Source of the DNA: a virus
Lineage: Duplodnaviria > Heunggongvirae > Uroviricota > Caudoviricetes
Virus record (IMG/VR): IMGVR_UViG_2671181033_000010
Length of the DNA stretch: 13,877 nt
Reading direction: 5' to 3' (one strand)
A program made the position numbers. Of this stretch, positions 1-3,000 are shown one piece after another (position 1 is the stretch's first letter; each line of letters begins with the position of its first letter).

Positions 1-3000
1 GCTTCCATCGGAAATAATGATCTGGCAGCCTGAGTTCACAGATAAAATACTCTCCAGGAAACCCGGGGCGGTTTTCACGTCAAAGTGTGTGGTGTTTGCT
101 TGCTGTTTTGAATTCACGCCATCCCGCTTGAGTTTTTCTTCTGTTTGGGTAGCTCGAAAGAGATTAGCCGCCAGTTCTGTTGAACCCATATGATCCAGGA
201 TCTTCTGATTCTTTTTCAGCCCCTTCCGCTGATGAATAGCTTTCTGATCTAATCCACCATACAGCCCCCGGTAACCATGATTCTGAAATATGGCGAAATC
301 GATAGCTGTCGCTACCCCAGCTTGCTGCGCTGCCTCAACCAATTGTTTGTTATGTTCTTTCAATTCATTTCTCAGAAAAAGACGCTTTTCGTCTTCACGA
401 AGTTGCCTGAAAGCTTCATCGTCAGCCAGCTCCTGCCGTCGGGTCTGGATAGCAAAATAAGTTTGCCCTGCCGCAATAACCGGTTTCGCAGGGTCGCCGT
501 TTTGTACTACCAGGTAACAGGCATAGCGGGAGAGATGAACATCTTCAAGTTCTCGTTGAGCCCCTGAACCTAATACAACCATTTTGGTGGTTTCAACGAA
601 ATGGTCAGATGCAGCTTGATTGCTGGCTTCGCACGCTTGAGTCGCGCGGGCCAGTACCTTTTGAAAATTGCGCCAGTCCCGATAATCCAGTAACGGTGCC
701 AATTCTCTAGCTGACCAAAATTCTTGCCCTTCAGTGCCATAATGCCGTATTTCTTCAAAAGGTTGATGATGTTCGTTCATTGCCCACTCCATGTGATATC
801 GATTGCAAAGAAAGTAAATCTGTAACTGTATTTATATACAGTTGTGAGTATCTCACGTTCTCAGTGTGCTGGGCAAAAAAACATCGCAAAATCTGGAGCA
901 GGCACGCAAAACAGAATTGAAGTTGCGGGGAAGAAAAATGCCGCTCTGTTTGAGTGGGCGGCATTTGTGAAGGCTGAAAAGTAAGATGAATCTGCTCATT
1001 GAGTATCTGCATCAAAGGAGCGTCATTGCTGGGATTTCTGTAATGACGATTTTGATTGTGTACACCCTTGTGTACACGGTTTTTTAAGGTGTGCCGCCGA
1101 TATGGGAACTGTCAGGGCAAATATTCACCGGAATTTTTTCCAGGTTAACCGTTAATCAGGCTGGTGGATGATCACGGATAGGCTGGCATATACAGCCGCC
1201 TTAAAAAGCTGAACCCGACAAGCATTACTGCGTATCGGGTTCGTTCGCTCTTTCTACTCGTGGCAGATGAGTTTATCGGTAGGGTTTTCTCAGGCGAAGG
1301 AATTATATCAGGCCATCCACTTTCTGTGCTGATTTGCATAGTTCCGAATGCTCCCGATATGGGGATCCCCATAACGGTGCTACCTGGCTTTTTTTCCGGT
1401 TAACTGTTAATCAGGCTGGTGGGGTGTGGTCATTTTGACCATCCCCATAGTTTCATGGTCGAGTTGCAGATCAGCAACTCCCCAATAGGGTAAAAGCATC
1501 AACCGTAACGATGATCGCTATGGTTGCCCCGATGGTCTGCGTGGTCATTATGACCATTCAGTGTGCGCCACCCTTTGTCTCGTGGCATAATTATCAGGCG
1601 ATTACGTTTTTTCACGATTGATTGGCAAGCCTTACTTCTCCAGCCGCAGATGCCCACTGCGGTTTTTTTTGCCTGTGCGTTATGCCGTCACCAAATCGCG
1701 CTCAACATACCGATCCATCTCCAGCTTCACATCCAGCATCATCAGCATGCCTTCAACAACACCTTCCGCTTTCTGTAGCCGCTTTCCGATATGTCCATCA
1801 GAGCATCCATGCTTACGTGCCAGCGCCATAAACGTTTTCCCCAGCACGTAGTAATCCACCAGCAAGTCATGCAGATCGCGATTGTTCCGGTAAAGGCGGG
1901 CTATGCACCCGCATATCACCATCGCATCATCGTCACAGCACTGCGGACGAGATGTTATCTTTGGCGGAATAATCCCCTTAAATCCTGCGGCAACGGATGA
2001 CCAGGTCACATTCTCGCGATTATTTGCCGCCCACGCTCCCCAGCGTTCCAGAACCTGCTGAATATCACGCATCAACAATCACCTCGTAATAGCTGTGGTT
2101 ACATACCCGTAATTCAGGGATGCACTGGATGAAAGTTAAACTACGAAAATTTCGTAGGTTGTGAGTATATTTCAGATAGTCGGTTGCTCAGCTAATTTTT
2201 CTAGAGTAGGTAGTACTACGTCGCGTAGTTACTGTTTTTTGATAGTACGCTTTTTCAGCATGCATCCCCCTTGTATACATTTAAAACAAGGGGGCTTTAC
2301 TTTCTGATAATAGAATTCTTCCCACAGTTTCCTGTCAGGATTCAATTATTTGTTTTTAACAGCGTGAACAAATAAAAAATCTCCGAAGATTTATCCCAAT
2401 TACGCTGCCAGCCAGAGCCATAAACATCCACAACCATCCATGTAAACTTCCTGATGCAGTTCCATCGAAGAATCCTCCCAAATTACAGGAAGCATACGCT
2501 CCTCCTGTTCCCATAAGCAATCCACCAGTTATTCCTGCCATTATGCTTCCACGAGTCAGAGGCTCTTTGATCCTTTTTCCCGTTAGTACAGTAGCCATTG
2601 CAGCCCCCAGCAATCCACCTACGAACATCCCAACCATAGGATTCTGAAATAATGGTTTAGTAATAACAGAATTATCAGATAAAACCCCAAGAAATGATGC
2701 AGTATGCAAGGATGTATCGTAGATGGCTCCGGTAATTGTCCATGCTGAACCGTGCATTGCCAGAACCAGTGAGTTCAGTACAGCTATAATTAACCCGCCA
2801 GAAAGAACAGTAAATCTGTTATCTTTCCAGAAAGAACCACCACTGGTGATAATTTTAGATATTTTTCCGGTGCGTTTTTTCTCAATGTATGAAAAAACAA
2901 GGTATAGTATCAATATAAATACAAGACTTAATAACATGCCTGACCACAAGCCGCCAGTAATATCTTTGGTGGTAATAATTTCTCCGGGAAAAATTGGTTT

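Follow-up and report, generated by a model that had tools for sequence, protein, structure and literature searches.

Introduction

In Escherichia coli, dinD is counted among the SOS genes (PMC6590174); the K-12 gene (pcsA) is regulated by LexA, and its product acts as an inhibitor of postsynaptic RecA filaments (Uranga et al. 2011, cited in PMC4457935). For insertion sequences (IS) of the IS3 family, three papers on IS629 and the IS-excision enhancer (IEE) in EHEC describe loss between microhomologies of 2-4 bp together with small adjacent deletions (PMC9943667; bioRxiv 10.1101/2023.06.07.543989; PMC9397093). The CA-3' terminus is the essential donor (cleavage) substrate of IS3-family ends (PMC3219604). 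In lacZ::IS600 of O121 E. coli that produce Shiga toxin (STEC), induction of the host promoter, antisense to the transposase, gave no rise in IS excision (PMC9397093).

Here, we analyzed a window of 13,877 nucleotides, the whole stretch of DNA of the IMG/VR record IMGVR_UViG_2671181033_000010, against these systems. With K-12 dinD, the locus shares the yicC/yicG position, the operator, a near-identical promoter, a rebuilt length of 274 aa, and a nearly identical C-terminal two-thirds; however, the window gene is split at codon 236, carries a divergent N-terminal Bro-N allele, and has its last 39 residues swapped for IS-antisense sequence. The features in common with the EHEC IS629/IS1203 and IEE system are a length of 1310 bp, TG...CA ends, and an orfA/orfB frameshift (Kusumoto et al. 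2011, via PMC9943667 and bioRxiv 10.1101/2023.06.07.543989), as well as 3-bp duplications, IS loss at 2-3-bp microhomologies, and small IS-end deletions (PMC9943667; bioRxiv 10.1101/2023.06.07.543989). Unlike the EHEC IS629 cases, the dinD site and the present inversion were absent from the literature searched, in which no papers combining IS629 and dinD were found. As in lacZ::IS600 of STEC O121:H19, which shows delayed lactose utilisation, an IS3-family copy interrupts a host gene close to its 3' end, the transposase running against an inducible host promoter, and the IS is lost at the lineage level (PMC9397093). Excision there restores a selectable function, whereas IS loss at dinD does not restore the gene, because the segment is inverted, and instead fixes the inverted state.

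P4-like satellites and integrative elements have in common with the island described below a tyrosine integrase with an Arm-DNA-binding domain, an AlpA-like HTH protein, Icd-like and Ash genes, a DUF927 primase-like gene, C4-type antisense RNAs, and integration at a host-gene 3' end with replacement of the last codons. In contrast to them, this island targets the yicC 3' end instead of a tRNA gene, is now split and partly inverted, and has PerC-family regulators, a Q antiterminator, and a YeeE/YedE transporter as cargo. Our reading, to which we assign a probability of about 85%, is that dinD, split by an IS and lying on a segment flipped by IS-pair inversion, is a pseudogene in decay rather than a switch through which DNA damage would control the mobile element.

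Results

Source and layout of the window

Both window ends consist of one IS end, mutually inverted, and the window is the whole chromosomal segment of 13.7 kb between two IS copies. An STEC lineage is the best explanation of its origin; the closest complete genome is that of an O5:H9 ST342 strain, and the window differs from the 2013C-4974 and OkiPb01713 genomes by 3-4 substitutions in 13.7 kb. A scaffold gap at 5099-5224 (89 N, then 37 G and a duplicated flank) is an assembly artefact. A contig with one repeat at both ends conceals its own orientation; with the same repeat at both flanks, the window alone leaves the orientation of the segment ambiguous, and the inverted state was taken from relatives.

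The 5' part of dinD and its SOS operator

The 5' part of the split dinD gene (codons 1-235 of 274) was located at 76-780 on the minus strand by profile match, DNA identity, and the rebuilt gene. The first-pass annotation had described a dinD-like frame open from its ATG across the IS junction to the window edge, and this description holds. The ATG at 780-778 (minus strand) opens a fusion frame of 260 codons that reaches window position 1 (1-780, minus strand), and the full predicted product of 288 aa comprises 235 DinD and 53 IS-antisense residues. The ORF listing misses this frame solely because it runs past the window edge.

The N-terminal sequence matches dinD, as first proposed. The NCBIfam equivalog NF008573 gave 435.6 bits (cut-off 242) with residues 1-237 aligned to profile positions 6-242 of 288, a Bro-N domain covers residues 10-105 of the frame (Pfam), and the DNA identity to annotated dinD of E. 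coli genomes is 97-99%, with homology beginning at window position 76. As the alignment breaks off at profile position 242 (of 288), with no more than 235 native residues left, the match is not that of an intact gene. The native stop does not lie before position 78, since the native gene has 39 further codons, 274 in total. When rebuilt, DinD is identical to the K-12 protein at 232 of 274 residues, and the differences are concentrated in residues 12-80. Judged from its sequence, dinD here would be a pseudogene that has probably lost its function.

Homology to the K-12 backbone covers 76-986. It includes the native yicC-dinD intergenic and promoter region of the chromosomal backbone (781-986, minus strand), assigned by K-12 homology and alignment, and the yicC-dinD-yicG context is found in the relatives, where one half adjoins the yicC-side island and the other adjoins yicG. 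The LexA (SOS) box AACTGTATATAAATACAGTT (824-843, minus strand) is intact, in agreement with the first-pass annotation, and is the same as in K-12 and in the published operator; the Shine-Dalgarno GGAG (787-790, minus strand; direct reading), also the same as in K-12, and the start codon are intact too. The 25-mer ACAACTGTATATAAATACAGTTACA in the window is identical to the published dinD operator (PMC3009722). The pattern CTGT-N8-ACAG has one match in the window (826-841), against a chance expectation of 0.10. Across ~200 bp 5' of the ATG, one substitution and two single-base indels separate the window from K-12, none of them in the LexA box.

The IS end and its scarred junction with dinD

An IS interrupts dinD, as had been noticed from the window alone. 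Positions 1-73 (plus strand) belong to a 1310-bp IS3-family element of the IS629/IS1203 type, of which they are the right (IRR) end; they are 100% identical to the IRR end in the relatives, the terminal CA is missing from the window, and dinD runs from 76. Only these 73 nt of the dinD-side element are inside the window; the IS body and its transposase lie outside, to the left. The complete IS in the locus of a relative has 1310 bp and the termini TGAACCGCCCCGG. RefSeq labels the IS of the relatives as an IS3 family transposase with programmed frameshift, and the transposase of a relative with the same junction has HTH_Tnp_1 and rve domains, in keeping with IS3-family size, orfA-orfB organization, and DDE type. 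From its length and termini, we take the element to be IS629; a literature search with the IS terminal sequence gave only IS6110 papers. At 13836-13877 (minus strand), sequence comparison identified the IRR end belonging to the second IS copy, which is inverted and has an intact TGAACC tip.

The two bases TT at 74-75 are a filler or scar that replaces the IS terminal CA and four flanking bases, GACC, which include the 3-bp target duplication. In the alignment, 2013C-4974 reads GGTT[CAGACC]CACG and the window GGTT[TT]CACG; the TT is absent from both parent sequences, and dinD restarts at 76. The dinD-proximal tip is GGTTTT instead of GGTTCA, and the element does not have TG...CA at both ends. 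The junction can alternatively be parsed as GGTT-TT-CA followed by CGTC, which retains the terminal CA shifted by 2 bp. On the sequence, the scarred tip has likely lost its function as an IS end. In 2013C-4974, the 3-bp target duplications are GTC in dinD and ACC in the Rha gene, and the dinD-side copy is deleted in the window.

Public data contain an exact match to the 288-aa fusion protein on two contigs, one of 4.4 Mb (GCA_003015285.1) and one of 14 kb, and eight partial versions were found on other contigs, mostly of ~12-15 kb. An identical TT scar occurs in two loci of relatives and in six further loci. Among the complete RefSeq E. coli genomes, none has the exact junction of the window, and 2013C-4974 is the only complete genome with an IS-dinD5' junction.

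Inversion between the IS copies

Both 2013C-4974 and OkiPb01713 have the order yicC-int-hyp-HTH-Rha5'-[IS+ or none]-dinD5'(inverted)-island-Rha3'(inverted)-[IS-]-dinD3'-yicG. In PVMF01000005, which carries the exact junction of the window, the near side reads yicC-int-hyp-HTH-Rha5'-IS-dinD5' with dinD5' inverted, and the fetched stretch ends inside the island, before the far junction. The first-pass annotation had the IS replacing the dinD 3' end. This was not borne out, as in the resolved relatives the last 38 codons and the stop lie ~15 kb off (the 13.7-kb segment plus the second IS), beside yicG and beyond the inverted IS.

The target duplications are reciprocal. The left IS is flanked by ACC...GAC and the right IS by GGT...GTC, with the reverse complements exchanged. 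Joining dinD5' to the distal 114-bp dinD fragment of a relative, minus one GTC, gives a DinD of 274 aa. The 3' part of a Rha-family regulator gene, split by the second IS, occupies 13462-13835 (minus strand), where the last three bases, GGT, are one copy of the ACC duplication; the Rha 5' part of a relative (positions 4417-4765 of its own locus) plus the reverse complement of 13462-13835, minus one ACC, gives an unbroken ORF of 239 aa. The swapped duplications and the exact rebuilding of both genes, between opposed IS copies, reveal an IS-pair inversion; for the genome of the window itself, the orientation is inferred from the relative with the same junction. A search of the complete genomes for an un-inverted dinD::IS ancestor found none.

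The P4-like island

The body of a P4-like integrative island spans 998-13461 (minus strand), according to the annotation of near-identical relatives, Pfam, and Rfam. Its genes comprise the antiterminator Q (1680-2078), a YeeE/YedE transporter (2356-3594), a DUF927 primase-like gene (7662-9800), Ash (11159-12745), and a GIY-YIG gene (12693-13469), with PerC-family genes, ProQ/FinO, SSB, and an Icd-like gene as further content. Two C4 antisense RNAs and an isrK-like RNA were found with Rfam. The 11-bp att core TGAATCTGCTC at 987-997 is the attR of this yicC-integrated island, and relative to K-12 attB, 27 nt are missing from the backbone arm on its left. The 41-nt direct repeats at 1127-1167 and 1382-1422 do not qualify as att sites, since no copy of them occurs near the attL on the integrase side, and TGAATCTGCTC is the real core.

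Junction alleles and IS decay

Four junction alleles were distinguished. Allele A, with an intact junction, was found on one contig, whereas allele B, with the TT scar as in the window, is represented by nine cluster-1 proteins on 1-2 contigs each. Clean IS loss at an ACC microhomology characterizes allele C (236-aa ORF, 235 contigs), from which the IS and 4 bp were lost at the ACC repeat. Allele D retains a 26-bp IS stub after the loss of ~1.29 kb at an AC repeat; among the matches listed, its 244-aa ORF is complete in at least three contigs, and its 244 residues are also seen as cut-off ends of allele B contigs. The TT scar is kept in this stub allele too. The DinD tails beyond the native part have 78, 53, 9, or 0 residues in related isolates. 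As to whether the insertion is fixed in related strains, a point that the first-pass annotation had raised, the identical scarred junction does recur in other assemblies, but some isolates retain only the 26-bp stub and most have lost the IS copy.

Alleles C and D show the loss at short microhomologies and the small IS-adjacent deletions of IEE-type excision, and this natural decay series (intact, scarred tip, 26-bp stub, clean loss) fits the published IEE/microhomology model. Two candidates for the IEE itself were rejected. The DEAD/DEAH helicase gene beside selC in a relative lacks a primase domain in its first 489 residues, and the domain content of the island DUF927 protein is not of the IEE type. 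The four junction alleles, together with the length variants of attR, provide fine-scale lineage markers for the clone.

Discussion

The arrangement could have arisen in a few steps. One IS copy would have entered codon 236 of dinD, duplicating the 3 bp GTC, with the transposase running against dinD, and the other would have entered the Rha-family gene of the P4-like island at the yicC 3' end, with an ACC duplication. Recombination of both copies, presumably RecA-mediated, would then have inverted the intervening DNA, placing the dinD promoter and 5' part beside the island integrase module and leaving the dinD 3' end beside yicG. The order of events may have been either recombination after two insertions, or a single insertion plus a copy of it set in the opposite orientation. 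At a later step, the dinD-proximal IS tip would have been damaged, with CA and four flanking bases turned into TT, which fits a cleavage-and-repair scar. After release of LexA, both the transcript and the 288-aa DinD chimera should still extend into the transposase gene in antisense, as a by-product rather than a regulatory device.

The first-pass annotation had proposed that one IS insertion took the place of the dinD 3' end and that the LexA promoter reads into the IS, so that IS activity could answer DNA damage. Part of this stands. The SOS operator, the Shine-Dalgarno sequence, and the ATG are all intact and K-12-like, and the open frame continues into the IS, where it is antisense to the 3' end of the transposase; in a relative, the 288-aa ORF and orfB share 120 nt on opposite strands. 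A search of the junction for a terminator or stable hairpin gave only a 5-bp stem and terminator-like matches at chance frequency (fold z-score +1.09). SOS-driven read-through antisense to the transposase is plausible from the sequence. The coupling of IS activity to DNA damage, however, has no support. With the frame antisense to orfB, any effect would be expected to dampen the transposase, and in lacZ::IS600 promoter induction in the same antisense geometry left excision unraised (PMC9397093). Moreover, the tip beside dinD is mutated in a family whose CA-3' is essential (PMC3219604), most related isolates carry the IS copy in eroded form or not at all, and the dinD 3' end is displaced rather than replaced. 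We consider the proposal very improbable.

Even less credit is due to two other readings. The junction and fusion ORF might be an artefact of a poor draft assembly, given the N-run, the 37 G, and the duplicated flank elsewhere in the window, the position of the junction just 75 nt from the contig end, and its absence in exact form from the complete RefSeq E. coli genomes. This was ruled out by the identical junction in the 4.4-Mb contig and in several further assemblies and read sets of independent origin, and the retention of the TT in the stub allele also speaks against it. The 13.7-kb cargo between two inverted copies of one IS also recalls a composite transposon inserted as a unit, a reading with next to no probability. 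The duplication pattern rules it out, as the outer flanks, ACC next to Rha and GTC next to dinD, differ and have no direct repeat in common, and each inner flank, read as its reverse complement, equals the outer flank at the other end, the hallmark of an inversion. In addition, the flanks consist of the halves of resident genes that neighbour each other, and the dinD promoter within the cargo is the native one, which in K-12 adjoins yicC. The IS-pair inversion with a decaying dinD is therefore preferred. It is an ordinary finding, one more IS629-type insertion and IS-pair inversion in STEC that inactivates a non-essential SOS gene, and the IS-split dinD by itself is of little importance.

A side observation concerns the island att core, at which nested deletions are anchored that recur in several STEC lineages. 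The attR backbone arm was found in at least 14 lengths, all abutting the same base, ^TGAATCTGCTC, across O157, O111, O103, O145, and O5, and six arm variants were found among isolates only a few substitutions apart. The idea that this erosion is confined to the inverted lineage was dropped, as direct-orientation islands show the same pattern. The eroded side of attR is the side that would bear the 3'-phosphotyrosyl adduct of a tyrosine integrase. Tentatively, and with more doubt than confidence, the STEC locus may record a recurrent recombinase cut, one-sided processing, and resealing, at times with a T filler, and the scarred IS629 tip (CA and GACC to TT) might be the transposase counterpart of the attR erosion. 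If the integrase causes the erosion at the att core, the locus would offer a readable genomic footprint of abortive site-specific recombination, which would be of wider interest. Inversion between the att cores was seen in 0 of 5426 complete genomes; at least one allele C isolate (SRR21768925) has an exact 4.08-kb inversion between both att cores, now inverted, by which the yicC-PdinD adjacency is restored.

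IS-pair inversion between dinD and the island

Positions 1-73 of the window belong to an IS3-family element of 1310 bp, of which they form the right end; given its length and TGAACCGCCCCGG termini, we take the element to be of the IS629/IS1203 type. The same IS end recurs, inverted, at the right edge (13836-13877); thus, the window is the entire stretch between two inverted copies. As both flanks are one repeat, the orientation of the segment is unreadable from the window alone, and the inverted state was taken from relatives.

The context is seen in complete genomes, among them that of 2013C-4974, a STEC strain of serotype O5:H9 and ST342 (PMC12113909). 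Its left part reads rph - yicC - integrase - hyp - HTH - Rha 5' part - IS(+) - dinD 5' part (inverted), and continues as Q - YeeE/YedE - PerC - ... - DUF927 - ... - GIY-YIG. The right part reads Rha 3' part (inverted) - IS(-) - dinD 3' part (114 bp) - yicG - ligB. In K-12, yicC - dinD - yicG lie on a single strand. The IS copies are flanked by ACC and GAC and by GGT and GTC, so that the two 3-bp target duplications are swapped as reverse complements between them. When the halves were joined minus one repeat copy each, DinD was restored at 274 aa and the Rha-family protein at 239 aa, free of interruption. Such a pattern is the mark of an inversion whose endpoints were two IS copies, one in dinD and the other in the Rha gene of a neighbouring island. 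Hence, the 3' end of dinD, which the first-pass annotation held to be replaced by the IS, is instead displaced, and the 114-bp 3' part lies beside yicG in 2013C-4974. The 4.4-Mb contig PVMF01000005.1 carries the window's exact junction. The stretch read from this contig, which ends inside the island, covers the near side and contains yicC, the integrase, the Rha 5' part, the IS, and the inverted dinD 5' part, an adjacency that arises solely from the inverted state.

The flank and duplication pattern does not fit a composite transposon or a deletion as the origin of the arrangement. The locus combines, in a STEC genome, the insertion of an IS3-family element with a secondary inversion between paired IS copies, a well-known kind of event; our literature search found no paper pairing IS629 with dinD.

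Junction alleles in one clone

The junction reads ...GGGGCGGTTCA followed by GAC and CCACGTC in 2013C-4974 and ...GGGGCGGTT-TT-CACGTC in the window, where TT takes the place of the IS terminal CA plus four flanking bases. Apart from this scarred tip, the remaining 1308 bp of the IS are identical. In an alternative parse, the CA would be retained but shifted by 2 bp; with the CA replaced by TT, the dinD-side IS end is probably disabled. The full predicted fusion has 288 aa, comprising 235 DinD residues and 53 read antisense through the IS. As this exact protein recurs on two public contigs, the TT scar is real and not an artefact. Eight shorter versions, ended by contig ends, were found on other contigs (most about 12-15 kb).

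In 13.7 kb, 3-4 substitutions separate the window from each of 2013C-4974 and OkiPb01713; nevertheless, four junction states were found among these near-identical genomes. Allele A, with the IS and duplication intact and a DinD ORF of 314 aa, was represented by one contig (2013C-4974). Allele B is the TT-scarred state of the window (288 aa), found in nine cluster-1 proteins on 1-2 contigs each. Allele C has cleanly lost the IS plus 4 bp at an ACC microhomology, with a stop codon at the junction (236 aa), and comprised 235 contigs, among them the complete genome OkiPb01713. Allele D keeps the TT scar and a 26-bp IS stub joined to Rha at an AC microhomology (244 aa); its ORF is complete in three related loci (L012-L014), and the identical 244 residues also terminate allele B contigs.

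The foreign DinD tail thus has 78, 53, 9, or 0 residues, and since its length varies among close relatives, the variation reads as a pseudogene pattern rather than a selected fusion. Both dinD pieces are already marked as incomplete pseudogenes in RefSeq. The EHEC IS-excision enhancer has been reported to promote both the removal of IS3-family copies between microhomologies of 2-4 bp and the formation of small deletions next to IS ends (PMC9943667; bioRxiv 10.1101/2023.06.07.543989), and lineage-level IS loss has also been described (PMC9397093). Alleles C and D appear to resemble such products in their microhomology-based IS loss. In allele C genomes, the distal IS copy alone is left (13734-15043 and 13722-15031 in the related loci L004 and L005), so that the inversion is no longer revertible by IS-IS recombination; the rearrangement has been locked by IS loss.

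The dinD promoter and the proposed SOS function

A stop-free minus-strand frame runs from the ATG at 780-778 to position 1 (260 codons), and it was left out of the mechanical ORF list solely because it is open at the window edge. By profile match, its product is DinD: the NCBIfam equivalog NF008573 scored 435.6 bits (cut-off 242), aligning residues 1-237 with profile positions 6-242 of 288, and a Pfam Bro-N domain lies at residues 10-105. A DNA search with the first 1500 bases matched 5370 of 5426 complete E. coli genomes, and nearly all matches begin at position 76, beneath annotated dinD. CTGT-N8-ACAG has a single match in the window (826-841; 0.10 expected by chance), and the 25-mer around it is the published dinD LexA box (PMC3009722). 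The 200 bp 5' of the ATG, which hold the ribosome-binding site, differ from K-12 by one substitution and two single-base indels, and none of these three differences falls within the LexA box. Accordingly, the open frame across the junction and the intact LexA box of the first-pass annotation were both borne out, and the breakpoint alignment against reference dinD that it had proposed placed the junction at 73-76, with E. coli homology from 76.

Over 76-986, the DNA is 88% identical to K-12, and the protein matches at 232 of 274 residues, with almost all differences within residues 12-80. This Bro-N region (540-745, codons about 12-80) is strongly diverged, whereas the rest of dinD and the promoter are nearly identical to K-12, a pattern suggestive of a mosaic or recombinant origin of the allele.

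With the native promoter and operator upstream of dinD, SOS-induced transcription across the dinD/IS junction is plausible. The terminator search at the junction gave just one terminator-like hit, with a 5-bp stem and at chance frequency, and the junction RNA fold was no more stable than shuffled sequences (z-score +1.09). The predicted transcript would run antisense to orfB, which the fusion ORF overlaps by 120 nt in L007, a related locus with the TT scar. The further proposal that such transcription couples IS activity to DNA damage found nothing in its support, and we consider it very improbable. The orientation is wrong for transposase expression, the IS tip adjoining dinD is mutated, and the dinD-side copy is disappearing from the population. 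Moreover, in the close analogue lacZ::IS600, induction of the host promoter left excision unraised (PMC9397093).

Island attachment site

The island is integrated at the last codons of yicC; attB and attP share 11 bp, which read TGAATCTGCTC in window orientation. In attR, the backbone arm (972-1000, junction 986/987) bears nested deletions of many lengths with one shared endpoint at the start of TGAATCTGCTC, each abutting TGAATC. At least 14 arm lengths were found across O157, O111, O103, O145, O5, and other STEC lineages (related loci L001-L032), with six among otherwise nearly identical isolates. The arm is full in K-12 attB and O145 RM9154, and progressively shorter prefixes occur in E2855, O111 (at least two variants), O103, O157, OkiPb01678, OkiPb01713, 2013C-4974, and 2014C-3011. 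Four more shortened arms belong to allele B/D isolates (the L012 type, PVMF01000005, the window, and JBMEYA010000069). The window lacks 27 nt of the K-12 attB arm, and T/A filler of 1-3 nt is present in some eroded arms. From established recombinase chemistry, the eroded side is predicted to bear the 3'-phosphotyrosyl link of a tyrosine recombinase after bottom-strand cleavage; therefore, abortive integrase cleavage followed by processing is an attractive, possible cause.

After the IS-pair inversion, attL and attR stand in inverted orientation. A 4080-bp block containing PdinD, dinD', Rha', HTH, hyp, and int is exactly inverted between the att cores (13 bp identity, inverted orientation) in locus L010 (9768-13847) versus L009 (Logan SRR21768925_30). 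This state, represented by one read set (SRR21768925) among the matches listed and by 0 of 5426 complete genomes, restores the yicC-PdinD adjacency and extends yicC to 330 aa. It looks like an integrase-mediated event enabled by the earlier IS-pair inversion.

Other island features

In the island arm adjoining attR, a 41-nt imperfect direct repeat (1127-1167 and 1382-1422) shows 85% identity at 255-nt spacing. Homology with several other island types ends near these repeats, which are candidate integrase arm-type sites or, alternatively, what is left of a tandem element.

At 5099-5224, a stretch of 89 N runs into 37 G, and a 34-nt flank, tggcgttcgtcgaaaggtggcgcgttatggcctg, is repeated on both sides. 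Relatives have continuous sequence there, and the draft assembly of the window contains a scaffolding and poly-G artefact at this point. Two insertions were also noted, one of 2 nt at 7596-7597 of the window compared with 2013C-4974 and one of 18 nt at 7336 in OkiPb01713.

Two C4 antisense RNAs (71.7 and 81.3 bits, both full-length) and one isrK Hfq-binding RNA (51.8 bits) were predicted on the minus strand at 10924-11011, 11390-11477, and 11526-11605. They would fit the immunity region of a P4-like satellite island adjoining Ash and Icd-like genes. Two arrays of 21-nt repeats (7392-7446 and 7491-7563), whose units are mutual reverse complements (TTGAGGCAACA... and TGTTGCCTCAA...), are situated just 5' of the DUF927 primase-like gene and are candidate iterons of the island origin.
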